Origin: Chlorobiota bacterium
Lineage (GTDB): Bacteria; Bacteroidota; Bacteroidia; Bacteroidales; JAADJA01
Reading direction: 5' to 3'
Assembly: GCA_013151015.1 (NCBI GenBank)
Contig: JAADJA010000044.1
Location: 1,417 to 65,416, forward strand
Length of the DNA: 64,000 nucleotides
The translations under genes were made by a program, and so were the position numbers. The notes beneath the pieces were generated by a model. It was not told where the DNA came from and did not search any database. It was given only the letters and a program-made list of their open reading frames with translations. The stretch's first letter is position 1; each line of letters begins with the position of its first letter. Positions 3,735 through 57,300 of this stretch are shown here, piece by piece.

Positions 3735-4469
3735 CCCGTTGGTGTTGTCACCAACGGGAATCCTCAAACCACATGCAGAAAGCGTCCACGCTTGTTAAAA
3801 TAGCACATTCATCCGATGACTTCGGGTCACCCACATGGAACAAGCGTCCACGCTTGTGATATCCCATATTCATCCGATGACTTCGAGTCATCGGATGAAT
3901 AAGTTACCGTTCAAGTTGGTGACAACACCAACATGGGGCAGGGGTTAATCATCATGTGGAGTGCACAATTAGCGTGGACGCTAATTGCATTTATATCTAA
4001 GCAGGAATCATGACTGCCGCCCGTTGGTGCTGTCACCAACGGGAATCCATAAACCACATGCAGAAAGCGTCCACGCTTGTTAAAATAGCACATTCATCCG
4101 ATGACTTCGGGTCACCCACATGGAACAAGTGTCCACGCTTGTGAGATTGCATATTCATCCGATGACTTCGCGTCACCCATATGGAACAAGCGTCCACGCT
4201 TGTGATATCCCATATTCATCCGATGACTTCGAGTCATCGGATGAATATGTTACCGTTCAAGTTGGTGACAACACCGATATGGGGCAGGGCTTAACCATCA
4301 TGTGGAGTGCACAATTAGCGTGGACGCTAATTGCATATAAATCTAAGCAGGAATCATGACTGCCGCCCGTTGGTGTTGTCACCAACGGGAATCCATAAAC
4401 CATATGCAGCAAGCGTCCACGCTTGTGAAAACAGCACATTCATCCGATGACTTCGAGTCATCGGATGAG
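3735..4469. repeat. Mosaic array of palindromic (REP-like) modules, about 2.5 composite units
   Basis: Hairpin A is cccGTTGGTGttgtCACCAACggg (starting at 3735, ~4020 and ~4366). Hairpin B is GTTGGTGacaaCACCAAC (core starting at 3915 and 4261). A small hairpin AAGCGtccaCGCTT occurs, and its inverse sits inside GCAATTAGCGtggaCGCTAATTGC. A 13-bp-stem hairpin TTCATCCGATGACttcgaGTCATCGGATGAA occurs as three full copies (~3889, ~4215, ~4439) plus three half copies. Confidence 0.9.
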
Positions 4470-4482
4470 TAAGCATGAAAAC

Positions 4483-5820
4483 TTATTGCATACCCAATTT
4501 ACGGAACCTTATCAATTCATATCCCAAAAACCCATACAACAATAGATATTCCCCACCCACCAGCCACATACTTTCCTTAAAACCGCTATTCCCATAGGCA
4601 TAATAGGAAAGCATGACGAGCAAGCTCCACAAAACCACAAAACGGTAATGGGTAAAAACAGAAATGATCAAAGGCAGGGCTATATACCAGGGATGTACCG
4701 TGGTGGAGAAGAAATAATAAACCGAAATGGCCATCAACATGGAAACCATCATTTGCCTGGGCCGCTCGTTCTTTGGAATAAATGTCAGGAGTAAAATTAC
4801 AATCAATGAGGCAAGGCCGAGAATAGGCCCGAGTTTCTGGATGATGTTCCAACCTTTCAGGTGGAAACCGATTTCACGGAACAAATAATAAAAACTCGCA
4901 TTGAACTCAAACTTCCGAAAGTAGAGGTCGATGCTCGACATGAAATTTTCGACCAGATCCATACTGAGAAAAGGGAGGAAAAGAAGGATAGAAACCATGC
5001 CCACGATCAGGTAATACTTTATGCTGTTCCATTGCCCCAGTTTTTTCATAAAGAAAGGGAGGAACAATAAAGGGATGAGTTTTACCGAAGCTGACAGGGC
5101 CAACATCACTGCCGATAATTTTTGTTTTTCCCTCAGGAGCAAATAAAGGGAAAATACGAGAAAGAAAACCGTTAGCCCTTCAAAGTGCAGGTTTCCCGTC
5201 ATTTCAATAATAATGAAGGGGTTTAAAGTATAAAGTAAAATATTGGATTGGGGCAGATCCAATCGTTTCAGGATTTTGCGGGCATAAAAAAAAGTCCCCA
5301 GATCCGACAGGACAAGGATGATACGCATCATAACAACACTTCCCAGGATACTTTCAGGAAACAGAAAGGCCGGCAGCAAAAAAACAAACTGGTTCACCGG
5401 TGGGTAACAGGTATAATTCCCCGGCGATATGCTCCCCTGTCCTTTCAGTAACTCCGCAGCATCGCTTCCCACACGGGCCATATCCACTGTTCCCACAAAG
5501 TCTTTCGGCAAAACGAGATAGGGGTTGATCCCCAAAACCGACATCCGCCCATCCCAGATAAAGCGGTAAAAATCGTTGGAAAGGGCCGGAAGGGCAAACA
5601 GGAAAATCAGGCGGAGGACAAAGGCAATTTTTAACGAAAACCCAAGATCGGATTCATTCTTTACCTTCTGATAATAAAACATGAAAGCAGCAAATAGAAC
5701 CGCATACAGGCTTATCATGCGAACAAAGTCCTCCCTCACCGTAAAATAGGCAAACACAAAATACACGGGAACAGATACCGCAAGGAAAGCGTAATTTGTT
5801 TTATTTTGTTTATTGGACAT
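4483..5820 (-). CDS. Polytopic membrane protein, putative GT-C-fold (DUF2029/PMT_2-like) glycosyltransferase
   Basis: 445 aa with about 11 predicted TM segments. An acidic/aromatic loop NDFYRFIWDG follows the early TM segments. It lies downstream of two GT2 genes on the same strand. Confidence 0.55.
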   Translation of the reverse strand: MSNKQNKTNYAFLAVSVPVYFVFAYFTVREDFVRMISLYAVLFAAFMFYYQKVKNESDLGFSLKIAFVLRLIFLFALPALSNDFYRFIWDGRMSVLGINPYLVLPKDFVGTVDMARVGSDAAELLKGQGSISPGNYTCYPPVNQFVFLLPAFLFPESILGSVVMMRIILVLSDLGTFFYARKILKRLDLPQSNILLYTLNPFIIIEMTGNLHFEGLTVFFLVFSLYLLLREKQKLSAVMLALSASVKLIPLLFLPFFMKKLGQWNSIKYYLIVGMVSILLFLPFLSMDLVENFMSSIDLYFRKFEFNASFYYLFREIGFHLKGWNIIQKLGPILGLASLIVILLLTFIPKNERPRQMMVSMLMAISVYYFFSTTVHPWYIALPLIISVFTHYRFVVLWSLLVMLSYYAYGNSGFKESMWLVGGEYLLLYGFLGYELIRFRKLGMQ

Positions 5821-11209: not shown

Positions 11210-12493
11210 TTAGAATGCTATTTGCTTGTTAAATTTCCCTTTGATTTCCGTTTCGTAACTTTTGTAAAATTCCGGGTCAAAATTCGCTTCCGTAAGCTCT
11301 TCGACCACCGCTTTCACGTGCTTCTTTTCTTTTATCCATTTTTCCATCACCCCATGCCTCAACCTAATGCCAAACACATTACAGCCTTTCAGGAACTTTT
11401 CCTTTTTATCGAATACAAGCTTTAGGCACTTTCTTCCCGTTTCATCTTCCCAATAAAAATCCCGTTCGTCTTCCTTCAAATTTGCCCAGACCCATCCGTA
11501 AGTCTGATATTCGATTTCGAGGAACTTGGCGGAATTGAACCAGATACCGGGTTGGTATTTCAATTTATCTTTACAAATTGTATAAGCAAGTGTTTCCCCC
11601 ATCATCCGCCCGGTGTACCAAACCTGTTCCACGGGTCTTCTTTCGCCCGGAGGTGTTTTGTGTTGGGCACAATCGCCAATGGCATAAACATCGGGCACAT
11701 TGGTCTCGCAATATTCATTGATCAAAATCCCTCTTGCCGTTTCGATTCCCGAATCCTCCAGGAAATCAATATTAGGGCTCACCCCGGCGGTCAGGCCCAC
11801 AAACCCGCATTCAATTTCATCACCTTTGCTTGTTACCACAGATTTGACCCGCCCATTGGAATCCGGCACAATTTCCTTTAACTCTGTTTCCAAACGGAGG
11901 TCGATATGGTTTTCCCGGATATGCCTTGTAATCAATGCCGATTCCTCGGCAGGTAGTATATTGTTCCAAAAACTTGTTTCGCGTACGAGGAAAGTTACAT
12001 CAATATCCCGTGAGTGCAACATCTCCGCCAACTCGATCCCGATCAGACCTCCACCAACGATCACCCCTCGCTTAATGTCTTTTGTGTATTTTTCGATATC
12101 TTGTAAATCAGGGTAACTGTACATTCCCGAAACGCCATCCATATCCTGGCCGGGCCATCCGAATTTATTGGATTTGGAACCCACCGCAAGGATGAGGACA
12201 TCATAGCCAACAGCTTTTCCATCCGACAAAACCAATTCTTTTTTGGCTATGTCAACCTTGTCCACTTTTGCATTCATCAAGTCGATGCGGTTTTTCTTCC
12301 AGAAATGATCTTCATAAGGCTTTGTGTGCTCATATTCCATGTGACCCATATAAATGTACATGAGTGCCGTGCGCGAAAAGAAATGCTCAGTCTCGGATGA
12401 AATTACCGTGATTTTGTATTGGCTCATTTTTCGGATTTCCCGGGCCGCCGTAATCCCTGAGATACCGTTTCCAAGAATAACAATATTTTTCAT
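11210..12493 (-). CDS. NAD(P)/FAD-dependent pyridine nucleotide-disulfide-type oxidoreductase
   Basis: The N-terminal Rossmann motif is IVILGNGISGITAA and the second dinucleotide motif is VIVGGGLIGIELAE. AIGDCA lies near the C-terminal part. Confidence 0.85.
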   Translation of the reverse strand: MKNIVILGNGISGITAAREIRKMSQYKITVISSETEHFFSRTALMYIYMGHMEYEHTKPYEDHFWKKNRIDLMNAKVDKVDIAKKELVLSDGKAVGYDVLILAVGSKSNKFGWPGQDMDGVSGMYSYPDLQDIEKYTKDIKRGVIVGGGLIGIELAEMLHSRDIDVTFLVRETSFWNNILPAEESALITRHIRENHIDLRLETELKEIVPDSNGRVKSVVTSKGDEIECGFVGLTAGVSPNIDFLEDSGIETARGILINEYCETNVPDVYAIGDCAQHKTPPGERRPVEQVWYTGRMMGETLAYTICKDKLKYQPGIWFNSAKFLEIEYQTYGWVWANLKEDERDFYWEDETGRKCLKLVFDKKEKFLKGCNVFGIRLRHGVMEKWIKEKKHVKAVVEELTEANFDPEFYKSYETEIKGKFNKQIAF

Positions 12494-12706: not shown

Positions 12707-13367
12707 CTTGCCGTGGATGTTGGGGATAATGCCAACACCCCGACTGCCGCCTGTTGGTGTTGTCACCAATGGGAATAATTTCATGGCTTTCCAACAACTA
12801 CCGAAACCGTGCATGTTGGTGATAATACCAACATGGGGCATGGATAACGCCAACAACCCCGACTGCAGCCCGTTGGTGTTGTCACCAACGGGAATAATTT
12901 CATGGCTTTCCAACAGCTATCGAAACCGTGCATGTTGGTGACAACACCAACATGGGGCATGGATAACGACAACACCCTGACTGCCGCCCGTTGGTGTTGT
13001 CACCAATGGGAATAATTTCATGCTTTCCAACAACTACTGAAAACGTGCATGTTGGTGACAACACCAACATGGGGCATGGATAACGCCAACACCCCGACTG
13101 CCGCCCGTTGGTGTTGTCACCAATGGGAATAGTTTCACGGCTTGCCAACAACTATCGAAACCGTGCATGTTGGTGACAACACCAACAAGGAGCATGGATA
13201 ACGCCAATACCCCGACTGCAGCCCGTTGGTGTTGTCACCAACGGGAATAATTTCATGCTTTCCAACAACTACTGAAAACGTGCATGTTGGTGACAACACC
13301 GACATGGGGCATGGATAACGCCAATACCCCGACTGCAGCCCGTTGGTGTTGTCACCAACGGGAATAA
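12707..13367. repeat. REP doublet array (left of the RAYT): six units with a ~118-bp period
   Basis: The hairpin A core GTTGGTGTTGTCACCAA starts at 12753, 12872, 12990, 13108, 13225 and 13342. The inverse hairpin B (catGTTGGTGacaaCACCAACatg) lies between successive A copies. Confidence 0.95.
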
Positions 13368-13377
13368 ACCAAATCAA

Positions 13378-13899
13378 TCAAAATATATCTTCGTAATAAT
13401 GTGTAATAAATCCCCAATCATCAATATTCAGGATATAATACTTTGCTGAAGAATACTTATAATCCTCCGGATGTTCAATTAAATGCCATTTTTCTTGTAA
13501 AGGGTTCAAATGAATATAATCCAATTTTTGTTCAAATACCCTTCTGTTGTACATTTTCTTGTTCTGGGAACCACGTTGCCAAAACTGATATTGCCTGTCG
13601 GATCCATTCTTTTTAAACTGATTAAGCATATGGGGATTGGTATCCAGCAAATCAAATTTGATTTGTTGGGAGGTGAACTTAAGAAAATCACGCTGCACAT
13701 TTCGAAGTAGATTTCCTTCTCTCATCCTCAATAACACATGGACGTGATTTGGCATTATTACGAACCCATACAAATATATCCGTTTATTGACAACCATAAA
13801 CTCCAAGGAATCAACAACTATCTTTTTGTAACTATCTTTGGATAAAAGATGTTTCCAATCAACGATTGTCGCAGTAAAAAAAAGGATAAAGTCTTCCAT
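13378..13899 (-). CDS. REP-associated tyrosine transposase (RAYT; IS200/IS605-like Y1 HUH transposase fold)
   Basis: 173 aa. The HUH motif is MPNHVHVLL and the catalytic Tyr motif is LDYIHLNPLQ. There are no IS ends, and REP arrays flank it on both sides. Confidence 0.85.
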   Translation of the reverse strand: MEDFILFFTATIVDWKHLLSKDSYKKIVVDSLEFMVVNKRIYLYGFVIMPNHVHVLLRMREGNLLRNVQRDFLKFTSQQIKFDLLDTNPHMLNQFKKNGSDRQYQFWQRGSQNKKMYNRRVFEQKLDYIHLNPLQEKWHLIEHPEDYKYSSAKYYILNIDDWGFITHYYEDIF

Positions 13900-13904
13900 A
13901 CAGG

Positions 13905-13912
13905 CAAATATA
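13905..13912 (-). promoter_or_regulatory. Bacteroidota -7 box TAtaTTTG just upstream of the RAYT start (near-leaderless)
   Basis: The plus strand reads CAAATATA at 13905-13912, which is TATATTTG on the minus strand. Only 5 nt separate it from the ATG at 13899. Confidence 0.4.
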
Positions 13913-13960
13913 GATATTTTTAATTGTTGTTCATTTTGATAATATTATCAAAACGGGACG

Positions 13961-14536
13961 ACTTGTTTCTTGCCACAGCCCAACACCCCGACTGCCGCCC
14001 GTTGGTGTTGTCACCAATGGGAATAATTTCACGGCTTGCCAACAATTGACAGAACCGTATATGTTGGTGACAACACCAACATGGGGCATGGATAATGCCA
14101 ACACCCCGACTGCCGCCTGTTGGTGTTGTCACCAATGGGAATAATTTCATGGCTTGCCAACAACTATCGAAACCGTGCATGTTGGTGACAACACCAACAT
14201 GGGGCATGGATAACGACAACACCACAACTGCTGCCCGTTGGTGTTGTCACCAATGGGAATAATTTCATGGCTTTCCAACAGCTATCGAAACCGTGCATGT
14301 TGGTGACAACACCAACATGGGGCATGGATAACGCCAACACCACAACTGCTGCCCGTTGGTGTTGTCACCAATGGGAATAGTTTCACGGCTTGCCAACAAC
14401 TGCCAAAACCGTTGTTTTTTGCCACAGCCCAATACCCCGACTGCCGCCCGTAAGTGTTGTCACCAACGGGAATAGTTTCACGGCTTGCCAACAACTATCG
14501 AAACCGTGCATGTTGGTGACAACACCAACATGGGGC
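13961..14536. repeat. REP doublet array (right of the RAYT): four full units plus one degenerate unit, same orientation as the left array
   Basis: Hairpin A cores start at 14001, 14119, 14237 and 14355, an exact 118-bp period. A degenerate copy lies at about 14450. Hairpin B copies lie at about 14061, 14179, 14297 and 14509. Confidence 0.95.
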
Positions 14537-14633
14537 AATGTGAAAAAACTTCAAATCAACGATAAAACCAGTTCTGTTTTGTATTTTGACGAATATAAAT
14601 TAAAGGCGGTAAAAAGGTAAAATCAAAGCCCAA

Positions 14634-16706
14634 TTATTTAAAACAATACCGCTTCATTACATGGTAGGCCTCTTCGATGCCCATTTCTCCTGCCCGGCTC
14701 AGGTTGGAGCAACCGGTGGAATTCAGTTTCATAAAAAGGAGCAGTAAGCCTTTATTGTAATAGGCTTCTGCAAAATCATCCTTCAAACCGATGGCTTTTG
14801 AAAAATCATTGATGGCACCCCAGTAGTCGCTCATCAAAGACCGCACATAGCCTTTGTTGAAATAGACAAAATAAAAATCAGGATCGAGGGAAATGACTTT
14901 GTTGAAATCCTGTATAATTTGGTTGTACTCCTTTTCAATTGAAGCCGAGTCAATCTGTTGATGTGCAATGGACAGATCCCTTGAAGCATCGAACACGTAT
15001 TCCATACCATTGTTTGAGGTGATGAGCTCCGTAAGTTTGAAACGTGTATTTGCCCGGCAAAACCAGGCCATCACATGTTGTGGATCTAAACGGATGGCTT
15101 CGTCAAAATAATTCAAAGCACTCCGGTAATCCCTTGTCTGGGCCAACAGCAATCCTTTTTGATAGTAATTTGAAGCCTCCCCGGGTTTTTCGATTATCGA
15201 TCGGTCCAGCGCATCCATTTCGACCCTAACCATGTTTTCATCCAATTTTGGCTCCTCCTCCGTAAGATTGATTATGGGTACAGAATAGCCTTTTTTATCA
15301 AACGTATCGTACATTTTTATCCCCGACAGATCGGAAGCGAAAAGCACGGCATGAAAAACCGTCTTCAATTCAATGTCCACAAACTGATTTTGGATTTTCC
15401 CATCAGAAGCATCCTTATCATAAAACTCACCACTAAATGCCAGCAATTTTTTCAGGTACATCGTCTGTTCAAGGCTCAGGCTGTCATTGTTAAAATTAAA
15501 CTCGTTGATCCCATAGGCCATTTTATAATCTTTTTCCGCCCCTTTAAAATCGCCCAATTGCTTCTTCACTTGCGAACGCTCATAAAACGCATCCGCAAAC
15601 TCGGGATAAATCCCTATGGCTTTATTATAATCGGCAATCGCGCCTTTCAGGTTTCCGGTGGAGGCTTTTAATTGCCCTCGGAACAAATATACCGCGATAT
15701 TCTCCGGGTTCAGTGCCAAAACCTTGTCCAAATCGGAAATAGCCCCTTTCGTGTCGTCCGTCCCAATTTTCAAAATTGCCCTGTTGTAATAGGCAAATGA
15801 ATTGTAAGGTGACATTTTCAGCACTTTGTTCAAATCCTTAAAAGCCCCAATCGTATCATGGATTTCAATCCGTGCCAGGGCGCGGTTCATATATGACTGG
15901 GTCTCCAGCGAATCGAGGGAAATGGCATGGTTGAAATCGACAAGGGCAGAATCGGGCTGCTCCAGCTCCATCCTTGCGCTGCCCCTTTGCAAATATCCAT
16001 CCGGGTTGAACCGGTTCTTTTCAACAGCTGTATTGAAATCCTTCAAGGCCTCCTCAAACTCCTTCAATCCTTTCCTTGCCATGCCCCGGATAATAAAGAG
16101 GTCTTCACTTGAAAACTTTAACTTCAATGCCTTATTGCAATCATCTATGGCTTTTTGATATTCCTTTAGGAAAAGGTAGGTGCGGGCCCGGTTTATCAGG
16201 ATGTAGGCATTCTTTTTATCGCGCTCAACGGCCAGTTTATAATCTTCGAGCGCGCCCCCAAAATTGTATTGCTGGCTACGGACAATCGCCCGGTAATGAT
16301 AGCTTTCGGCATAATAGGGGTCGAATTCGATGGACATGGTGAAATCATATTCGGCGCCCACATAATCGCCCAGGGAATATTTGGTAATCCCACGCAAAAA
16401 ATAGGCCTCATAGGATGTGGGGTGCATATAAACGGCCAGGTTAAAATCTTCCAAGGCTTTTATCAAATTATTCTCCTTTAAATCCTTACGGCCAATTTCG
16501 ATGTAATTCCCGACCCGTTGGGCTTGAAGCTTAAACATCGTCAGCCATATGAGGAGCGATAAGGAAAAAATAACCCGGGATTGTATTTTTATTCGGGATT
16601 GCTTCAAAAAGAGGAGTTTATATAAAGTTCGTTTATCATTGCTATCGAAGGGAACGCAAATCCCAATAATAATCGTTATCGGATTGCACGTCCGAAAGAG
16701 CTGCAT
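14634..16706 (-). CDS. Tetratricopeptide (TPR) repeat protein, exported
   Basis: Many A-x3-(F/Y)-x2-A-(I/L)-x3-P type TPR units occur throughout. The start is uncertain. A TTG at 16607 would give MKQSRIKIQSRVIFSLSLLIWLTMFKLQA, a cleaner signal peptide. Confidence 0.75.
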   Translation of the reverse strand: MQLFRTCNPITIIIGICVPFDSNDKRTLYKLLFLKQSRIKIQSRVIFSLSLLIWLTMFKLQAQRVGNYIEIGRKDLKENNLIKALEDFNLAVYMHPTSYEAYFLRGITKYSLGDYVGAEYDFTMSIEFDPYYAESYHYRAIVRSQQYNFGGALEDYKLAVERDKKNAYILINRARTYLFLKEYQKAIDDCNKALKLKFSSEDLFIIRGMARKGLKEFEEALKDFNTAVEKNRFNPDGYLQRGSARMELEQPDSALVDFNHAISLDSLETQSYMNRALARIEIHDTIGAFKDLNKVLKMSPYNSFAYYNRAILKIGTDDTKGAISDLDKVLALNPENIAVYLFRGQLKASTGNLKGAIADYNKAIGIYPEFADAFYERSQVKKQLGDFKGAEKDYKMAYGINEFNFNNDSLSLEQTMYLKKLLAFSGEFYDKDASDGKIQNQFVDIELKTVFHAVLFASDLSGIKMYDTFDKKGYSVPIINLTEEEPKLDENMVRVEMDALDRSIIEKPGEASNYYQKGLLLAQTRDYRSALNYFDEAIRLDPQHVMAWFCRANTRFKLTELITSNNGMEYVFDASRDLSIAHQQIDSASIEKEYNQIIQDFNKVISLDPDFYFVYFNKGYVRSLMSDYWGAINDFSKAIGLKDDFAEAYYNKGLLLLFMKLNSTGCSNLSRAGEMGIEEAYHVMKRYCFK

Positions 16707-26309: not shown

Positions 26310-26401
26310 TCCAACCGTCTGGATTATCGGAGATTTCCCATAACAATTTTTGTTTTTTGACGTATATAGTCGAAACATTGGAATTAGATAGAGAATTAGC
26401 G

Positions 26402-29400
26402 ATGAGCAAATATTTGAAAAACACTATAAAAAACCCTGTTCTGTTTATAATTGCCCTGGCCGTTTCCATGATCTGGGGACAAGCTGCCAATGCACAGGTA
26501 ACAGCGGATTTCACCTATGACCAATCCTGTCTTGACTTTCAGTTCACGGATGCTTCCACGGCAACCATAGGCACGATCAACGACTGGAGCTGGGATTTTG
26601 GGGACGGCAATAGTTCCACCTTGCAAAGCCCTATGCACACCTATGCGGGAGACGGTACTTATCCGGTTACGCTCACGGTGACCACCGATAATTTTGATTC
26701 CGATACCTATACGCAAGATGTCTATATCACGACACCCGTGGCCGTTTTCACCTACAGTCAATTTTGCGATTCACTTGAATTTATTGATGCTTCCACACCC
26801 ATTGGTGAAATAACAGCCTGGAGTTGGGATTTCGGGGATGGGGCTTCTTCCACAATTCAAAATGCAACCCACACCTATTCGGCGCCCGGAGACTATTTAG
26901 TTTCCCTTACCGTTACCCATAATACCGGTTGTATAAGTATTGCCGAAACACAAACCATCAGTATTGCCCCGACAGCAATGTTCAGCTTTAATCAAAACTG
27001 TGACTTTTTCACCTTTAATGATGAATCAACGCCTTTGGGCGATATAACGGACTGGAGTTGGGATTTTGGCGATGGTGGTTCTTCCATCGATCAAAACCCG
27101 ACTTATACCTATTTGATACCCGGAGAATATACTGTTTCGCTCGTTGTCACCAATAGTTCAGGCTGTACCGATTCCACCGCTCAACAAGTTAGTATTGTCC
27201 CGACAGCGGCATTTAGCTATGCACAGGTTTGCAATGTTTTCAACTTCACCGATGAGTCAACGCCATCCGGTGAAATAACAGTTTATGATTGGGACTTTGG
27301 TGATGGTATTGGATTTTCAAATCTTCAAAACCCAACTTATGATTATCCAAATACAGGGGTTTATACCGTTACCCTTACGGTTACACATACTTCGGGATGT
27401 TTGGATAGCACGTCCCAGGATGTTTTGATTTCGAAACCGGATGCTGATTTTACCTTCGTACAGTTTTGTGATTCATTGGAATTTACCGATGCTTCATCAT
27501 CTTCGGCAGGAATAGAATTCTGGAATTGGGAATTTGGTGATGGAAATACTTCCACAGACCAAAACCCAACCCATACCTATACAGTGCCAGGGGATTATAC
27601 AATTTCACTTTCGATTACCGATTCGTTGGGTTGCAGTCACAGTAAACAGGAATTCATCAATACCTATCCAACGGAAGTTGGTTTTGAATACGATTTGGGA
27701 TGTTTAAACCGGGTTTCAACGTTTATTGACACTTCAACTACAAATATCATATCCGGGTCATGGAACATCGATGGTATCACATTTCCTTATCAACCTTCAA
27801 TCCAATATACATTTACCACATCGGGTATACATACGGTAATCCTCAGTGTAACAAACGATATTAATTGTTCGGACACCCATCAGGAGGACATTGAAATTTT
27901 TGTCCCTCCCATTGCTGCCTTCAGCGTACAATTGTTTTGTGCATCGGATACAACGGTTTTCCTGAACGAAACAGATACACAAAATGTGGAGGTACAATCC
28001 TGGCTCTGGGACTTTAACGACCCGAGCAGCCCAGACCCGACTTCTGGTTTGTATGAGCCCAATCACTCATTTACGAATCCCGGGCCCTATGACGTAAAAC
28101 TTATTGTTGAAAATATTTATGGATGTGTCGATTCGATAATCCAAACCATTTTCATCGATTCCCTGCCCGAACCCGCATATACTTATGTGGAATACGCTTC
28201 CGAAGGGCAGTTGGCCACCTTTATTGATGAATCCCAGGCACACGGCTCCTTTATAATCAACAAGTATTGGGATTGGGGGGATGGCTCAGCGCCCGGCATC
28301 AATGTGAACCCCGTTACACACATTTACGATCCGGGCGGGGCATATCAACTTTGCCTTGGGGTTACGGATTTAAATGGCTGTACGGATACAATTTGTCAAG
28401 AAATCGTAATAGCAAAAAAACCACTTGCGGATTTCACCTATACAGCAGGTGGCATAACGGCCTATTTTGTAGATGCAACCACAATCGACACATTGACCGG
28501 GGCCAAAGAATGGTTATGGACATTTGGGGACGACCTTGGGACATCCATTGTAGCCAACCCATCATTTATTTTCCCGGCTCAAGGGTTTTACGATGTCAAT
28601 ATTATGGTCACCGACTCCCTCGATGCCGTACACGACACGACAAAGAACATTTATGTCGGAAACGCCCTGATTGCCGATTATATTACCGATGAAGATATTT
28701 GTTACGGCGATACCAGTGTGATCTTCGACAATTCATACAGCCCTGTTGGAGACACTATCCTAAGCTGGCATTGGAATTTTGGAGATGGGCACGACACCAC
28801 CTATTATGAAAAAGCAAGCGTCCTGAAACACTTTTATGAAATTGGTGAATATCCGCTTCAACTAATCATCACGGCAATTCACAATGGATCGGATGCAATT
28901 GATTCGATTAACCGGAATATTTTTGTCCACCCCAATCCCATTGCTTTTTTTGATAGTGTTGGGGTTTGCAAAGGGGACATAGCTTACTTTTATGACCTGT
29001 CCGACAGTTTTGGGGATACCCTATCGAGTTGGCTATGGGACTTGGGCGACGGCACAATAAAAACAGAACAAAACCCCGTCCACAATTATCAAAAAGACAG
29101 TACATACAGGGTAAGCTTGGTAGTAACCACTGAATATGGATGTACCGATACAATGTACCAGAATGCACACGTTACCTATGCACCGGAGGTTACCTTTACC
29201 GTTGAGAATGCCTGTATTGATTCACCGGCCAAATTTGTACCTTTATATAGTTCGGGGACTTATGTTACCGAATGGCTTTGGGATTTTGGCGACCCAAACA
29301 ACGACACCACTTCAACGGAAGAATCGCCCACACATGTTTATACTTATTTTACGCTCTATGACGTATCGGTTACCGCCTCCTCCTTTGGTTGCCCAAAAAC

Positions 29401-29992
29401 CACGGATAAAACAATTTTAATATATCCTATCCCCTACTCTGATTTTAATATGACACCGAACTATGGGGGCTCGCAGGGAAAGGTGATGTTTGAGAACGGC
29501 TCTATCTACGCAGAAAATTATTTATGGGATTTTGGCAATGGGCAGACTTCGAGTGTTGAAAACCCAATTGAAGTTTACGAAGACGATAGCACATACCTTA
29601 TCACGCTCATTTCTTACAACGAATACGGATGTTCCGATACCAGCCGAATGGAGTATTATTTGTTTTTCAAAGGATTGTATTTCCCAACGGCCTTTTCGCC
29701 CAACAACACAAACCAAGAGGTAAGCCTTTTTACGCCCAAAGGGGTGAACCTGGCAAAATACCATGTCCAGGTATTTGATATGCGCGGGAACCAGGTTTGG
29801 GAATCCGAAGCCATTGACGATGCCGGCAGGCCCACCGAAAGCTGGGACGGCTACTACGAAGGGCGGTTGATGCCCCAAGGGCTATACTTATGGCGAGCCA
29901 CCGCTACTTTTATCGATGGGACGGTATGGCAAGGGACAACGCTTCAAAACGAAGAGCCCCAGTTACAGGGGACGGTTACGCTTATCAGGTAA
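26402..29992 (+). CDS. Multi-PKD-domain surface protein with a T9SS type B (gliding-motility-associated) C-terminal domain
   Basis: Thirteen repeats are marked by W-x-W-D-F-G-D-G-like motifs. The C-terminus reads FPTAFSPNN...VFDMRGNQVWES...WDGYYEG...GLYLWRA. I prefer the start at 26402 (MSKYLKN...). Confidence 0.85.
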   Translation: MSKYLKNTIKNPVLFIIALAVSMIWGQAANAQVTADFTYDQSCLDFQFTDASTATIGTINDWSWDFGDGNSSTLQSPMHTYAGDGTYPVTLTVTTDNFDSDTYTQDVYITTPVAVFTYSQFCDSLEFIDASTPIGEITAWSWDFGDGASSTIQNATHTYSAPGDYLVSLTVTHNTGCISIAETQTISIAPTAMFSFNQNCDFFTFNDESTPLGDITDWSWDFGDGGSSIDQNPTYTYLIPGEYTVSLVVTNSSGCTDSTAQQVSIVPTAAFSYAQVCNVFNFTDESTPSGEITVYDWDFGDGIGFSNLQNPTYDYPNTGVYTVTLTVTHTSGCLDSTSQDVLISKPDADFTFVQFCDSLEFTDASSSSAGIEFWNWEFGDGNTSTDQNPTHTYTVPGDYTISLSITDSLGCSHSKQEFINTYPTEVGFEYDLGCLNRVSTFIDTSTTNIISGSWNIDGITFPYQPSIQYTFTTSGIHTVILSVTNDINCSDTHQEDIEIFVPPIAAFSVQLFCASDTTVFLNETDTQNVEVQSWLWDFNDPSSPDPTSGLYEPNHSFTNPGPYDVKLIVENIYGCVDSIIQTIFIDSLPEPAYTYVEYASEGQLATFIDESQAHGSFIINKYWDWGDGSAPGINVNPVTHIYDPGGAYQLCLGVTDLNGCTDTICQEIVIAKKPLADFTYTAGGITAYFVDATTIDTLTGAKEWLWTFGDDLGTSIVANPSFIFPAQGFYDVNIMVTDSLDAVHDTTKNIYVGNALIADYITDEDICYGDTSVIFDNSYSPVGDTILSWHWNFGDGHDTTYYEKASVLKHFYEIGEYPLQLIITAIHNGSDAIDSINRNIFVHPNPIAFFDSVGVCKGDIAYFYDLSDSFGDTLSSWLWDLGDGTIKTEQNPVHNYQKDSTYRVSLVVTTEYGCTDTMYQNAHVTYAPEVTFTVENACIDSPAKFVPLYSSGTYVTEWLWDFGDPNNDTTSTEESPTHVYTYFTLYDVSVTASSFGCPKTTDKTILIYPIPYSDFNMTPNYGGSQGKVMFENGSIYAENYLWDFGNGQTSSVENPIEVYEDDSTYLITLISYNEYGCSDTSRMEYYLFFKGLYFPTAFSPNNTNQEVSLFTPKGVNLAKYHVQVFDMRGNQVWESEAIDDAGRPTESWDGYYEGRLMPQGLYLWRATATFIDGTVWQGTTLQNEEPQLQGTVTLIR

Positions 29993-39941: not shown

Positions 39942-40338
39942 GGGGCTGACCGGATTTGACAGCAAGGACAGTGGATTTGTAAGCATGCCGGGCCATGGGA
40001 TACGCTCGTTAAAAATTTTCCCACAACTATAATTGGCGATTCTAATTACGCTCTTGCTGCGTAACCGAAGTTTAGTAGGTTAGGCTTAATTCCAGCTCCA
40101 GGAGCCGGAACGAGACATCCCGCGGGCGGATCTGTCTGATTCCAACCTGATCACGGGGTGCTGACAATTTCAGACTGGCCGGGTGAACGCTCCGCTCATT
40201 TCGGCGAGATAAAGGAGATAAGGTTTTGATTTGGGTGACTGTTCCCGGGCAATATTCGAAAATCAATAACAGTATAAGCATGTAGAAAGCACTTTTGCTG
40301 CTTGTTTGGACGAGGGTTCGACTCCCTCCAGCTCCACC
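39942..40338 (+). ncRNA. ssrA: tmRNA (SsrA)
   Basis: The 5' end is GGGGCTGACCGGATTTGAC. The 3' tRNA-like end is GGACGAGGGTTCGACTCCCTCCAGCTCCACC. The tag reading frame at 40035-40064 is GGC GAT TCT AAT TAC GCT CTT GCT GCG TAA, giving GDSNYALAA*. Confidence 0.95.
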
Positions 40339-40447
40339 TTCGCCCGCCGTAGCCTTGGCGCAGGCGGGCTTCGCCCTCTCCTACACAGAGTACGGCGGGC
40401 TACGGCGGACACTGTCCACCTGATAATACTAACATATTTGCCTGTTT

Positions 40448-40687
40448 ATGTTTTATTATGTGTATATACTTCAATGTAATGACCTATCTTATTATACCGG
40501 GTGCACACAAAACCTTGATGAAAGATTGGCTGCCCATAATAAAGGATTGGTAAAATCGACAAAGGAGAAGTTACCAGTAAATATTATCACATATACCGCT
40601 TTTACGAATAAATCCAAGGCCTTTCGATTTGAAAAATACTTAAAATCAGGTTCTGGAAGGGCATTTGCACAAAAAAGATTAAGATAA
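40448..40687 (+). CDS. GIY-YIG mini-nuclease (UPF0213/URI-domain-only), copy 1
   Basis: 79 aa. The motifs are YVYIL...YYTGCT...RLAAHN...FEKYLKSGSG. Confidence 0.85.
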   Translation: MFYYVYILQCNDLSYYTGCTQNLDERLAAHNKGLVKSTKEKLPVNIITYTAFTNKSKAFRFEKYLKSGSGRAFAQKRLR

Positions 40688-40790
40688 ACATAGCCTTGGC
40701 GCAGGCGGGCTTCGCCCTATCCTGCACTAAATACGGCAGGCTACGGCGGACGCTGTCCACCTGATAACACTAAAGTATTTATCCCTGTTT

Positions 40791-41030
40791 ATGTTTTATT
40801 GTGTGTATATTCTTCAATGCAATGACCTATCTTATTATACCGGTTGTACCGAAAATCTGACAAAAAGGTTGGCTGCCCATAACAAAGGATTGGTAAAATC
40901 GACAAAGGACAAACTACCTGTTAAGATTATCACATATACAGCTTTCACGGATAAATCCAAAGCCTTTCGGTTTGAAAAATACCTAAAATCAGGTTCCGGT
41001 AGGGCATTTGCACAAAAAAGGTTAAGATAA
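40791..41030 (+). CDS. GIY-YIG mini-nuclease, copy 2 (72/79 aa identical to copy 1)
   Basis: It has the same motifs as copy 1. Its start lies 343 bp after the start of copy 1. Confidence 0.85.
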   Translation: MFYCVYILQCNDLSYYTGCTENLTKRLAAHNKGLVKSTKDKLPVKIITYTAFTDKSKAFRFEKYLKSGSGRAFAQKRLR

Positions 41031-41147
41031 ACGAAGCTTTAGCGAAGTAGGGCTTCGCCCTTTCACTAAAGCTTCTTCGGGTTTCAGTGGACACCATCCA
41101 CTAACTGGCTTTATAAAAAAACAAATTTACTCCCAACAACCAAACCT

Positions 41148-41486
41148 ATGCACTTCGTTTACATCTTAAAATGCTCAGATAAAACATTTTGTACTGGATG
41201 CACATGTAATCTATATGAAAGATTATCAAGGCACAACAAAGGACAAGTCCACTATACAAAAGACAAACTTCCCTTTGAGCTCATCACCTATATAGCATTT
41301 TCAGAAAAACACAAAGCATATCAATTTGAAAAGTATTTGAAATACGGATCTGGGATCGCATTCAGGAATAAAAAGGCTAATTTAGTTTTTACTTACGTAT
41401 CAACACCTCCGTTGCACCATACCCAAACTCTTTCATGGAAGCATCCCTTGAACTCACGTTATTATAATCTTTCAGGATTTCCTTAA
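41148..41486 (+). CDS. GIY-YIG mini-nuclease, diverged copy 3, with a roughly 30-aa read-through tail
   Basis: FVYILKC...FCTGCT...RLSRHN...FEKYLKYGSG. There is no stop at the position where the paralogs end. The ORF continues 98 nt antisense into the 3' end of the convergent Smr gene. Confidence 0.65.
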   Translation: MHFVYILKCSDKTFCTGCTCNLYERLSRHNKGQVHYTKDKLPFELITYIAFSEKHKAYQFEKYLKYGSGIAFRNKKANLVFTYVSTPPLHHTQTLSWKHPLNSRYYNLSGFP

Positions 41487-42628: not shown

Positions 42629-42717
42629 CATGTTGGTGACAATACCCATATGGGGTAAGGCAACAATCAGTTGAGTGGAAATTACTTCGCAAGTTGGTGA
42701 AAACACCAACTCGAAGC
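42629..42717. repeat. Two REP-family hairpins (one degenerate, one extended)
   Basis: catGTTGGTGacaatACCcAtATg lies at about 42629. CTTCGcaAGTTGGTGaaaaCACCAACTCGAAG lies at about 42685-42717, immediately 3' of the stop of the minus-strand gene 42728-44533. Confidence 0.75.
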
Positions 42718-42727
42718 AAGAAAAGGA

Positions 42728-54613: not shown

Positions 54614-54717
54614 GTATGCAATAAGCGTCCATGCTTATTTGTGGGATGAACAATCGCAAGTGCGGATGCTTGCCACATATTGGCACATAGAGGGTATGAA
54701 ATAAAGGATTTCGACAC

Positions 54718-57018
54718 ATGGTACATTATAAAAAATATTGCTTGAACCTGCTGATGCTGGTGCTTCTTGTTGTTTCGCAAACCGTTCACGGCCAATTGCT
54801 TTTCAAGAACCATCAAAACTCCAAAAGCCCGGTGGTTGTAAAAGATGAAACGAAAAAAACCTTTGCTTTCCCATGGGCCGGGGGAATGAATTCCTGCCAG
54901 TTCAATGAAATCGACCTCGACCTCGACGGCACAAAAGACCTGATGGTGTTCGACCGGAACGGCAACCGTATTATGACTTTCCTTAATGGTGGCACGGCCG
55001 GACAGGTGGATTACACATATGCCCCGGAGTATGCCCAAAAATTCCCCGGGTTATTCGATTGGGTAATCCTGGCCGATTACAATATGGACGGCAAGAACGA
55101 CATCTTCACTTACTCTCCGGGATGGGCCGGAATGAAAGTCTATAAAAACACATCCGGCCCGGAACTTGAATTCACGGTGGAAGTGGAACCATTTTTAACA
55201 TCCCTTCAAGGCGGCGGTTATGTGAATATCCTCGTGACCTATGCCGATTACCCCGGGATTTCGGACATTGACAATGATGGCGACCTCGATATCCTTGTTT
55301 TCTGGGGCTTGGGTTCTTTTGTGGAAATGCACAAGAATATGTCCATGGAAAAATACGGCATTGCCGACTCCCTGGATTTTGAAGAAACCACTTCCTGTTG
55401 GGGCCATTTTGCCGAAAATGACGAATCCAACGAAATCTATCTTGATACCTGCAACAACATTAAACAAATGCAGGACAATAAAACAAACAGGCACACCGGC
55501 TCCACATTTCTTTTACTGGATTTGGACAATGATGCCGACAAAGACCTGCTGCTTGGTGATGTGGATTATCCCAACCTTGTGGAATTGATAAACGGGGGCG
55601 ATACAGATGAAGCCCATATGACCAGTTACGACACGCTTTTCCCGGTTTATGACAAACCCCTCAAGCTTTTTTCGATGCCGGCCGGTATGTATATCGACAT
55701 TGATAATGACGAAGTGAAGGATTTGATTGTTTCGCCCTTTGATCCAAGCACCATTACTTCCAGGAATAAAAGAAGTGTCCAATTGTATCGAAATGAAGGG
55801 GCCAATGAGTTTCCCGATTTCGCCTTTGCACAAAATGATTTTTTGCAGGAGGACATGATCGATGTGGGTTCCGGCTCATGCCCTTTGCTGTTCGATTACA
55901 ACAATGACGGATTGCAGGATTTGTTCATTTCCAATTTCGGCTATTATATGTACTCCTATTATCAGGCAGGGGCGTTTCTGAAATCGGTCTATTGGTCGAA
56001 TGTTGCCCTGTTTAAAAATACGGGAACTCAATCTGAACCTGAGTTTACCCGAATTACCGATAATTTCGCCGACCTTCATTCAGAGCATCTTCGTGGACTT
56101 TATCCTACCTTTGGGGATTTGGATAATGATGGTGATACGGATATGTTGGCCGGACAGGAAGACGGCAGTTTACTATTTCTTGAAAATGTTGCAACAAATC
56201 CTGACACGATGCTGTTTGCTTCTCCGGTCTTTAATTATCAGGACATTGACGTTGGCCAGTTCAGTGCCCCGCAATTAATTGACCTGAACCAGGATAATTT
56301 GCCCGATCTTGCCATTGGCAAACAGGATGGGCGAATCAGTTATTATGAAAACCAAGGGACACTTTCAAGCCCACAGTTCATCTGGATAAGCGATTATATG
56401 GGAAGCGTAAATGTTACGGATTCCACGCTTTCCTACACCGGTTATAGCACACCCCGGTTTTTCAGGAACAACGAAAACCAATTGGAGTTGTTGGTGGGCT
56501 CCGAAGACGGGAAGGTTTTTTACTATAAAAACATTGAAGGAAACCTAACAGGAAATTTCACCGAATCCGATTCCCTTTATTTGCTTGTTGGCAATGGTGT
56601 TTTTGAAATGGACATGGGGATGCGGTCGGCAGCGGCAATTTCAGATATGGACAATGATGGTTGGCAAGACTTGATTACCGGCAACTACTCCGGTGGATTG
56701 AATTACTTTTCAGGTTCAGCATTTCCCGGGGTCAATGCCTTGAACAAAACGAATAAAAACAATTTCAATATTACTGTTTTCCCAAATCCTGTATCGGATA
56801 TACTAAATGTGCAGGTTTCAGGCTTTGATGAAAACGATAAAATAAAAATCGAAGTATCAGATATTTTTGGGCGACTTGAATTCTCAATTTTATCAAATGG
56901 AGAGTCAACTTTTAAAATTCAAATGCAAGATTTCCGTCAAGGAATTTATTTCCTAAAAGTATCATCTTTTGAAAACCCTGAAATAGGAGCCTATCAAAAG
57001 ATTGTTGTTTCAAGATAA
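54718..57018 (+). CDS. FG-GAP/VCBS-repeat protein with a T9SS type A C-terminal sorting domain
   Basis: Repeated D-x-D/N-x-D-G-x-x-D motifs occur (DIDNDGDLD, DLDNDGDTD, DMDNDGWQD). The C-terminus is VFPNPVSDILNVQV...YFLKV. Confidence 0.8.
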   Translation: MVHYKKYCLNLLMLVLLVVSQTVHGQLLFKNHQNSKSPVVVKDETKKTFAFPWAGGMNSCQFNEIDLDLDGTKDLMVFDRNGNRIMTFLNGGTAGQVDYTYAPEYAQKFPGLFDWVILADYNMDGKNDIFTYSPGWAGMKVYKNTSGPELEFTVEVEPFLTSLQGGGYVNILVTYADYPGISDIDNDGDLDILVFWGLGSFVEMHKNMSMEKYGIADSLDFEETTSCWGHFAENDESNEIYLDTCNNIKQMQDNKTNRHTGSTFLLLDLDNDADKDLLLGDVDYPNLVELINGGDTDEAHMTSYDTLFPVYDKPLKLFSMPAGMYIDIDNDEVKDLIVSPFDPSTITSRNKRSVQLYRNEGANEFPDFAFAQNDFLQEDMIDVGSGSCPLLFDYNNDGLQDLFISNFGYYMYSYYQAGAFLKSVYWSNVALFKNTGTQSEPEFTRITDNFADLHSEHLRGLYPTFGDLDNDGDTDMLAGQEDGSLLFLENVATNPDTMLFASPVFNYQDIDVGQFSAPQLIDLNQDNLPDLAIGKQDGRISYYENQGTLSSPQFIWISDYMGSVNVTDSTLSYTGYSTPRFFRNNENQLELLVGSEDGKVFYYKNIEGNLTGNFTESDSLYLLVGNGVFEMDMGMRSAAAISDMDNDGWQDLITGNYSGGLNYFSGSAFPGVNALNKTNKNNFNITVFPNPVSDILNVQVSGFDENDKIKIEVSDIFGRLEFSILSNGESTFKIQMQDFRQGIYFLKVSSFENPEIGAYQKIVVSR

Positions 57019-57061: not shown

Positions 57062-57130
57062 AAACTTATATTTCCTTTTATGCAGTTTATGGTTCAAATA
57101 CCCTAATTTTGCACCATCGAATTCAATCAA
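57062..57130 (+). repeat. 69-bp direct repeat, copy 1 (contains the -7 box TAATTTTG at 57104-57111)
   Basis: AAACTTATAT(T/G)TCCTTTTATG(CAG/TCT)TTTATGGTTCAAATACCCTAATTTTGCACCATCGAATTCAATCAA. The last 47 nt are identical to copy 2. Confidence 0.9.
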
Positions 57131-57231
57131 TACCTTAACATCTGACTTTGGCAATGGGCGAGGCAACTTCTTTGGCATGTCTTTAAAAAAAATGGAAATA
57201 TGAGGTGTGCGCCAATGCCCGCTTCCCCCAC

Positions 57232-57300
57232 AAACTTATATGTCCTTTTATGTCTTTTATGGTTCAAATACCCTAATTTTGCACCATCGAATTCAATCAA
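57232..57300 (+). repeat. 69-bp direct repeat, copy 2 (-7 box at 57274-57281, 49 nt upstream of the ATG at 57330)
   Basis: It has the same length as copy 1, differs at 4 positions and starts exactly 170 bp after copy 1. Confidence 0.9.

Follow-up and report, generated by a model that had tools for sequence, protein, structure and literature searches.

A RAYT gene between two amplified arrays of inverted REP hairpins in a Bacteroidota contig

The RAYT gene and its flanking arrays

We analysed a 64-kb stretch of DNA (hereafter the window) from contig JAADJA010000044.1 of a Chlorobiota bacterium, which GTDB places in the Bacteroidales. At 13378-13899 (- strand) the window carries an intact open reading frame (ORF) of 173 amino acids (aa) for a REP-associated tyrosine transposase (RAYT, or TnpA_REP; REP, repetitive extragenic palindrome). 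On either side of it lies a tandem array of short hairpins in inverted pairs, one at 12715-13367 (+), 3' of the stop codon, and the other at 13963-14540 (+), 5' of the start codon. The gene and the arrays are best read as a REPtron, i.e., a RAYT gene set among its cognate REPs. An earlier interpretation made from the letters alone (the sequence-only reading) had placed here a Y1 HUH protein of this length with the motifs NHVHVL and DYIHLNP. Both are present in the ORF: the HUH motif NHVH occupies residues 51-54, W107-Q108 follows, and the catalytic Tyr128 lies in DYIHLNP.

The ORF matches the NCBIfam family NF047646 (REP_Tyr_transpos, "REP-associated tyrosine transposase") over its full length, with E=1.8e-22. 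Because the Pfam match is sub-threshold and a single-sequence phmmer search against the PDB gave a weak match (E=0.06), profile and fold searches were required. A profile made from 63 RAYT homologs, in whose alignment H52, H54, W107 and Y128 are invariant, matched 4ER8, the Escherichia coli TnpA_REP structure, with E=1.2e-5, and both the HUH and the Tyr regions were aligned. The AlphaFold (AF2) model of the protein (pLDDT 94, pTM 0.89) gave 4er8_A at rank 1 in Foldseek (E=1.7e-7, TM 0.64/0.67), followed by TnpA structures of the IS200/IS605 group (ISDra2, IS200 and IS608). The family, profile and fold matches thus agree with the sequence-only reading, which had taken the ORF for a RAYT. The protein has 981 homologs; the named ones are all from Bacteroidota (Bacteroidales metagenome-assembled genomes (MAGs), Pontibacter, Rufibacter, Mucilaginibacter and Xanthocytophaga), and many already bear the label RayT or REP-associated tyrosine transposase from JGI or NCBI. 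Judged by these homologs alone, the window would come from Bacteroidota and probably from Bacteroidales. Most of the 120 best homologs are on contigs of ~0.6-2.5 kb, which suggests that flanking REP arrays routinely break short-read metagenome assemblies and would hide the RAYT-REP system in MAGs.

There is one RAYT copy in the 64-kb window, and no tnpB gene is present. The absence of insertion sequence (IS) termini, which the sequence-only reading had also claimed, held: no IS ends are present, and the gene keeps its locus in relatives up to a synonymous divergence (dS) of 1.3 (syntenic loci at dS 0.49 and 1.32). The ratio of non-synonymous to synonymous divergence (dN/dS) is 0.077 relative to the gene of a 92%-identical relative (L117) and 0.088 relative to that of a 79%-identical one (L129), values that point to strong purifying selection on the gene. 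Six nt upstream of the RAYT start codon lies TATATTTG (13900-13925, - strand), which is kept in the 92% relative (L117 480-504). We take it to be a match to the Bacteroidetes -7 promoter consensus TAnnTTTG, and if it is such a promoter the RAYT mRNA would be nearly leaderless. No match to a -33 TTTG was seen at the usual spacing from it.

Copies of the hairpin were located over the whole window by its 18-nt core, GTTGGTGTTGTCACCAAC, allowing up to 3 mismatches. We found 27 copies, relative to 0.07 expected from shuffled sequence: 11 at 12753-13359, 9 at 14001-14529, 5 at 3738-4386, and 2 diverged ones at 42632 and 42693. In the array 3' of the gene, which holds 5.5 units of 117-119 bp with 11 hairpins (6 of type A and 5 of type B; repeat families D1-D4), Tandem Repeats Finder reported a period of 117 bp at 12724-13367 (5.5 copies, 91% matches), and a 235-bp period scored better. 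The array 5' of the gene comprises three full 118-bp units, one unit without B (14355) and a terminal doublet (14450/14512), nine hairpins in all (families D2-D4); here Tandem Repeats Finder gave a period of 118 bp at 13980-14412 (3.7 copies, 92% matches). A regular spacing of about 118 bp, as described in the sequence-only reading, applies to the right array, whereas the left one varies between 117 and 119 bp and is not exact.

A-type cores start on the + strand at 12753, 12872, 12990, 13107, 13225 and 13342 in the left array, and at 14001, 14119, 14237 and 14355 in the right one, with a degenerate copy at 14450; of the six left-array starts given earlier, five are correct and 13108 should be 13107. 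A B-type core on the - strand follows each A after 61-62 nt, save the A at 13342 and at 14355, and the next A comes 56-57 nt after B. The arrays thus consist of inverted doublets repeated every 117-119 bp, of the type of bacterial interspersed mosaic elements (BIMEs), as had been suggested, and of REPINs. The inner stem and loop are GTTGGTG-TTGT-CACCAAC, with two inverted copies per unit; the form of A in the arrays is cccGTTGGTGttgtCACCAA[C/T]ggg on the + strand, and that of B, as read on the - strand, is catGTTGGTGttgtCACCAACatg. As single-stranded (ss) DNA, a whole 118-bp unit can form two hairpins or a single long A:B hairpin, the latter because A and B have exactly reverse-complementary cores.

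The arrays come close to the gene at both ends, as had been claimed. Homology in the left array stops ~10 bp from the RAYT stop codon and the last A hairpin lies ~15 bp from it, while homology in the right array begins ~65-70 bp from the start codon. From left to right, the left array starts with an A hairpin at 12750-12773 (+; cctGTTGGTGttgtCACCAATggg) and a B hairpin with diverged loop and stem at 12812-12835 (-; GTTGGTATTATCACCAAC). There follow an A hairpin with a perfect 10-bp stem at 12869-12892 (+), predicted to fold as ssDNA with -12.7 kcal/mol (z = -5.5), and a perfect B hairpin (catGTTGGTG..CACCAACatg) at 12931-12954 (-), with -10.6 kcal/mol. The others were identified as core copies: A hairpins ending in the CACCAAT variant at 12987-13010 and 13104-13127 (both +), each followed by a B hairpin, at 13048-13071 (-) and at 13166-13189 (-; outer stem damaged, ctt/atg); an A hairpin at 13222-13245 (+) with its B at 13283-13306 (-; GTCGGTG variant); and finally the A hairpin closest to the stop codon, at 13339-13362 (+), whose position is kept in the 92% and 79% relatives.

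A junction motif, ttgtttcttgccacagcccaacaccccgactgccgccc (13955-14000, +; family D2), separates the first A hairpin of the right array from the region upstream of the RAYT. The A hairpin closest to the start codon, at 13998-14021 (+), is 101 bp from it and has the same position in L117. The core copies then alternate between B at 14060-14083 (-), A at 14116-14139 (+), B at 14178-14201 (-), A at 14234-14257 (+) and B at 14296-14319 (-), up to the A hairpin of the truncated unit, at 14352-14375 (+), which has no B after it, as seen also in the comparison of units. A second copy of the junction motif, ttgttttttgccacagcccaataccccgactgccgccc (14408-14449, +; family D2), precedes the outermost doublet, which consists of a degenerate A hairpin at 14447-14470 (+; GTAAGTG, with two stem mismatches) and a B hairpin at 14509-14532 (-), 100 bp from the stop codon of a TPR protein gene. 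In family D2, 13963-14088 and 14412-14537 are 90% identical.

CACCAAT instead of CACCAAC ends 7 of the 11 A-type copies (12753-14372), leaving G opposite T in the outermost pair of the conserved 7-bp stem, and none of the B-type copies of the flanking arrays. The A copies with this ending may be a subfamily mark, or they may reflect a functional asymmetry akin to the stem mismatch required by the E. coli enzyme. ORFs of up to 101 aa overlap the flanking arrays. An Rfam scan of the window found no family in the arrays, the only matches being a tmRNA and three tRNAs elsewhere. The locus is bordered by the TPR protein gene (14634-16706, -) and by a gene for a pyridine-nucleotide-disulphide oxidoreductase (11210-12493, -).

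The hairpin family in the window and in other genomes

To describe the hairpin we used 233 unique copies (259 copies for the loop count). Pairing at the three positions next to the 7-bp core occurs in 97, 96 and 85% of copies, relative to 83, 66 and 42% in shuffles, and at the fourth outer position it falls to 15%. The outer-stem triplets are diverse (gtt/aac, ctt/aag, ttt/aaa, ccc/ggg, cat/atg, gct/agc and others). An unpaired GCC is conserved on the 5' side (G 65%, C 82%, C 76%) without a 3' counterpart, and 222 of 259 copies have the loop TTGT, TTTT and TTAT being minor forms. The REP is thus an asymmetric, tagged 10-bp hairpin with a covarying outer 3-bp stem, that is, the design of GTAG-tagged REPs with another tag. 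In other genomes, stop-free stretches of 150 codons or more cover 81% of the bases but contain only 14% of the copies, and by this measure the REPs there are extragenic. Among neighbouring pairs no more than 200 nt apart in those genomes, 42 of 62 are inverted with the tags outside, with a median spacing of 66 nt; hence the A-to-B pair of the window (62 nt) is the standard doublet of the family.

The scan for the hairpin, over one genome per species read as 8-kb chunks, found it in at least 116 stretches, where roughly 9 would be expected by chance. Among the matches listed, nearly all are from Bacteroidota, with some from Ignavibacteriota and Chlorobiota; those from Bacteroidota include many Mucilaginibacter species, Dyadobacter, Runella, Roseivirga, Ekhidna, Reichenbachiella, Marinoscillum, Nibribacter, Chitinophagaceae, Saprospiraceae and Bacteroidales. 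A few matches, from Bacteroidales MAGs, resemble a conserved coding sequence more than REPs, their flanks being non-complementary. The genome of the window itself was not among the matches listed. A scan of metagenomes for window-specific variants of the hairpin gave only seven single matches, two of which are syntenic relatives.

The hairpin is linked to the gene outside the window. When the chunks from the hairpin scan were searched by tblastn with the window RAYT, orthologs at 48-53% identity were found in seven of them, and look-ups of closer homologs added further loci. At each of the 15 independent loci outside the window (17 contigs; 48-92% identity) this hairpin was found within ~15-100 bp of the RAYT ortholog, and it is present on both sides of the gene wherever both flanks are available; L121 and L122 show the upstream copy only. 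The usual order in the relatives is REP>, RAYT, <REP, with the tags outside. The context of the gene varies among relatives at 61-74% identity. REPs occur mostly without the gene: 146 of 162 REP clusters have no RAYT.

All four REP loci of the window are intergenic. The recurrence of the hairpin at 3735-4469, noted in the sequence-only reading, is real in that five copies are present, three A and two B; they do not form an array of the 118-bp unit but are part of a composite array (+) of 346-bp period between convergent genes, in which the GTTGGTG hairpin is interleaved with two other hairpin families, X and Y. At 42629-42721 (-) two diverged copies (42632 and 42693, 61 nt apart) were likewise confirmed, in direct and not in inverted orientation. 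Hairpin X (AGCG-TCCA-CGCT) occurs in both orientations in the composite array (3769-4460), with a single further copy at 54624-54635, and its outer stem covaries (ca/tg, gtg/cac, aata/tatt, caatt/aattg). It is present also in several Mucilaginibacter genomes, partly as 31-bp tandem runs (25 matches in ~1 Mb), and among the fetched loci it is found in L006 (2586-2690), L031 (5866-5933), L042 (2737-2780), L067 (5174-5221) and L128 (1040). Since it is like the TCC-loop REPs listed for other RAYTs of subclass 2.6, the RAYT class discussed below, hairpin X may be the cognate REP of a second RAYT outside the window. Hairpin Y, CATCCGATGACTTCGAGTCATCGGATG, has six copies, all in the composite array (3813-3890, 4098-4236 and 4444-4460), together with shorter variants, GATGACTTCGGGTCAC; it was absent from 131 fetched loci.

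Other repeats were observed in the window. The tmRNA gene (39942-40339; 145 bits in Rfam) is followed directly by two tandem 343-bp units (Tandem Repeats Finder, 40350-41061, 86% matches), each with GC-rich hairpins and an ORF of ~77 aa for a GIY-YIG nuclease (Pfam E=5e-15), and a third GIY-YIG-like ORF apparently begins near 41150 (region 39942-41200). An ORF of 1211 aa (26357-29992) has an internal period of 234 bp, its repeats opening with TGGGATTTTGGGGAYGG, i.e., WDFGDG, a PKD-like domain motif (families D9/D10). At 57062-57300, between the ORFs at 54718-57018 and 57330-59108, two 69-nt direct repeats, 94% identical, lie 170 nt apart (family D13).

Growth of the arrays and its explanations

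The sequence-only reading proposed that the arrays grew by duplication of units, and the comparison of units argues for this. Complete units, spacers included, are 84-97% identical, which points to block duplication. Units 12990 and 13225 are 97% identical though two units apart, in agreement with the 235-bp higher-order period, and this indicates that a two-unit block was duplicated; units 14119 and 14237, with the same identity, are adjacent. Unit 12872, on the left, matches units on the right at 94-95% identity; both arrays therefore share a history or exchange sequence. The repeated 40-nt junction motif (13955-14000 and 14408-14449) is another duplication scar.

Syntenic relatives provide the most informative test of how the arrays arose. 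In L117 three parts can be aligned with the window: the TPR gene end, the RAYT together with the hairpins closest to it, and the unique sequence that borders the left array on its left. Upstream of the RAYT, L117 has only 2 hairpins in 240 bp, relative to 9 in 735 bp in the window; downstream it has 2-3 in 264 bp, relative to 11 in 685 bp. In L129 the order is TPR gene end, three REPs, RAYT, three REPs, oxidoreductase gene. Likewise, L128, syntenic around the GT87 gene (4483-5820), has two REPs and one X hairpin where the window has its 735-bp composite array. Since L117 and L129 have no more than 2-3 hairpins on a side, the expansion is lineage-specific. Judged from this comparison, the RAYT gene and the REP loci are old and fixed, and the long arrays arose recently in the lineage of the window, with the reservation that short-read assemblies can collapse tandem repeats. 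In all fetched sequence, a sample biased by the way in which the loci were chosen for fetching, REP clusters that adjoin a RAYT are larger than the others (medians 3.5 and 1, Mann-Whitney p=7e-7), and the 20-copy cluster of the window is the largest of the 162.

We propose, with a probability of roughly 0.87, that the locus is a REPtron in which a single-copy, vertically inherited and domesticated Y1 HUH RAYT (Bacteroidota subclass 2.6 / Group 5) lies among its cognate REPs, with the doublet unit amplified on both sides. Each REP comprises an unpaired 5' GCC tag, a free 3-bp outer stem, an invariant 7-bp inner stem (GTTGGTG/CACCAAC) and a TTGT loop, and two inverted REPs with the tags outside, ~62 nt apart, form the basic doublet, comparable to a BIME or REPIN. 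Tandem amplification of the 118-bp doublet unit, in blocks of one or two, gave the 9 and 11 hairpins on the two sides of the gene. The remaining steps are modelled on E. coli TnpA_REP, which cleaves and recombines BIMEs in vitro, and for which both spread in trans and local addition of units have been proposed (PMC3333891). By this analogy we infer that the protein binds the folded REP on ssDNA, e.g., the lagging-strand template, reading the inner stem, the loop and the 5' tag, and that it cuts ssDNA in the vicinity and rejoins it by way of a 5'-phosphotyrosine intermediate. Such cutting and rejoining would move doublets in trans to other intergenic sites and add units locally, and slippage or unequal recombination between the 118-bp direct repeats would contribute further changes in copy number. 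As a speculation, the conserved GCC before the stem resembles the context in which the E. coli enzyme cleaves, CC|T.

The amplification step could also be explained without the enzyme. The arrays would then have grown by slippage or unequal homologous recombination only, the hairpins being kept for a host use (3'-end protection, termination or nucleoid-protein binding) and the RAYT merely lying in a REP-rich spot. This explanation covers the amplification only and is compatible with a REPtron. Duplication of whole units with their spacers and the 235-bp higher-order period are what slippage or unequal crossing-over produces, the variants shared between left and right at 94-95% are consistent with recombinational homogenisation, and all loci are intergenic, several of them just past gene 3' ends. 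However, it does not predict larger REP clusters beside the RAYT, and it faces the activity of E. coli TnpA_REP on BIMEs in vitro and the explicit models of unit addition (PMC3333891). As for a role in termination, no T run follows the hairpins, and the possibility that they are classical intrinsic terminators was rejected for this reason. We lean towards a contribution of the enzyme because the clusters next to RAYT genes are larger, and consider growth without it a serious contender with the odds somewhat against it. That the gene and hairpins form an autonomous IS of the IS200/IS605 type, which transposes as a unit with the hairpins as subterminal ends, is in turn very improbable. The Y1 HUH fold is common to the TnpA proteins of that group, which rank directly after 4ER8, the hairpins are near both ends of the gene, and the genomic context differs among the relatives at 61-74% identity; but the gene is single-copy in the window, it has the same chromosomal position at dS 0.49 and 1.32 under strong purifying selection, the hairpins are far more numerous than the gene and mostly stand apart from it, TnpA_REP rather than an IS transposase is the best match in sequence and fold, tnpB is lacking, and identical hairpins are present on both sides.

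Even less credit is given to the idea that the arrays are not REPs at all, i.e., that they represent an assembly artefact, a protein-coding repeat or a CRISPR-like array, as the regular period and the overlapping ORFs might suggest. Against it, the units differ at 3-16% of positions and vary in length, variable spacers are absent, no Rfam family is found in the region, and the hairpin family occurs in more than 100 other genomes among the matches listed. A coding repeat was rejected because units of 117 to 119 bp do not preserve a reading frame, and the ORFs switch frame.

Some observations weigh against the REPtron as we propose it. The scores for NF047646 (79.8 bits, cut-off 80) and for Pfam Y1_Tnp PF01797 (18.5 bits, cut-off 23) are both slightly below threshold. 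The Tyr motif is YIHLNP, where that published for subclass 2.6 is YIH[QN]NP; among the homologs, however, the position after YIH is N, L, R, H, A or Q, followed by NP, so that YIHLNP is a variant inside the family. Subclass 2.1, or the TIRYT group, shares the motif Y[IV]HLNP but was rejected: its members are ~238 aa long, with a C-terminal helix-turn-helix domain and without REPs. In the window and in L117, the REP closest to the gene on its upstream side is oriented opposite to that in the REP>, RAYT, <REP order of most relatives. Finally, the relatives with few hairpins are short-read contigs, in which tandem repeats can collapse. The checks by which the sequence-only reading could have failed, among them whether the ORF scores as a RAYT, came out in its favour as far as they were run.

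A wider proposal, which we consider unlikely though worth stating, joins two claims: that one RAYT clade and a near-invariant 18-nt hairpin have been co-inherited across the Bacteroidota, perhaps with Ignavibacteriota and Chlorobiota, and that the RAYT acts preferentially in cis. If the co-inheritance were true, this would be the most deeply sequence-conserved RAYT-REP pair on record. If the RAYT acted in cis, the largest arrays would build up beside the gene, and the 20-copy array of the window would be an extreme and recent case.

Comparison with known systems

For annotation, the locus is to be described as a RAYT gene with flanking REP arrays, and neither as an IS nor as a set of hypothetical small ORFs. 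It provides a clean and strongly amplified example of a little-studied RAYT subclass of the Bacteroidota. The hairpin is short, perfect and easily synthesised, and the covariation separates its fixed parts (tag, inner stem and loop) from the free outer 3 bp, which offers a ready design for binding and cleavage assays. In addition, the syntenic comparison indicates that array copy number changes fast at a fixed locus, so that it is usable as a strain marker.

The sequence-only reading overstated the novelty of such a system in Bacteroidota. RAYTs of Bacteroidetes flanked by hairpins without a GTAG tag have been described as subclass 2.6, equivalent to Group 5, and a Runella REP is among the published examples (PMC6006769, PMC5581495). 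Subclass 2.6 (Quentin et al. 2018, PMC6006769), or Group 5 of Bertels et al. 2017, is mostly from Bacteroidetes, has a mean length of 179 aa, carries NH[LIV]H, WQ and YIH[QN]NP and lacks a C-terminal helix-turn-helix domain. The window RAYT, with NHVH, WQ, YIHLNP and 173 aa, was assigned to it by motifs, length, host and hairpin. It shares with subclass 2.6, and specifically with the Runella slithyformis protein AEI49282.1, a similar size, the motifs NH[LIV]H, WQ and YIHxNP, a Bacteroidota host, REPs without a GT[AG]G tag and flanking hairpins that occur elsewhere in the genome. It differs in the L of the Tyr motif where the consensus has Q/N, and in the amplification of its REPs to 20 in regular 118-bp units, beyond any relative seen. 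The 16-mers that flank Group 5 genes are moderately abundant, with 31 occurrences (Bertels et al. 2017). Table S1 of PMC6006769 lists GCCGTTGTTGGTGTTATCACCAACAACC (row TGATGCCGTTGTTGGTGTTATCACCAACAACC) beside AEI49282.1. This REP has the same tag, inner stem and stem length as that of the window and differs at one loop base; its outer stem is gtt/aac, whereas in the window it is ccc/ggg or cat/atg, with the GCC tag one base further from the stem. In a full-text literature search of incomplete coverage, no paper with the 18-mer was found, the only record being that table, and the literature so covered mentions neither the GCC tag nor a hairpin core that is invariant over the phylum while its outer stem covaries, nor an array as large and regular as this particular one, nor a co-inheritance of RAYT clade and hairpin or a preferential action in cis.

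In E. coli, REPtrons are established, and the number of their BIME units varies (Ton-Hoang et al. 2012). The window locus resembles the K-12 REPtron (tnpA_REP/yafM with BIMEs, including BIME-2 arrays) in that a domesticated Y1 transposase, single-copy within the window, is accompanied by variable inverted REP doublets, the gene being fixed at one locus and the copy number of the doublet varying between strains; the asymmetric 5' tag of the hairpin and the protein fold (4ER8) are likewise shared. The two proteins are only ~15% identical, however, and belong to subclass 2.2 in E. coli and 2.6 here. The tag is GTAG in E. coli and GCC in the window, whose stem of 10 bp is perfect and lacks the bulge needed by the E. 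coli enzyme, and unlike E. coli BIMEs the doublets of the window have a linker of ~44 nt and a unit of 118 bp.

In the REPINs of Pseudomonas fluorescens, reportedly described by Bertels and Rainey in 2011, two inverted REPs form a replicating doublet. The inverted doublet is common to both, as are A and B cores that are exact reverse complements in a unit foldable as one hairpin, and the tag-outside inverted doublet is the commonest arrangement of the window hairpin in other genomes. Here, by contrast, each REP is a strong independent hairpin, the spacer is longer and the RAYT is of another group, and the doublet is a candidate mobile unit. With IS200/IS605 elements (IS608, ISDra2) the locus shares the Y1 HUH catalytic fold and DNA hairpins near the gene ends. 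It differs from them in being single-copy in the window, not mobile as a unit and without tnpB, with its position kept and its hairpins dispersed independently. The locus is therefore a real, unusually amplified member of an already described system, and a good specimen rather than a surprise.

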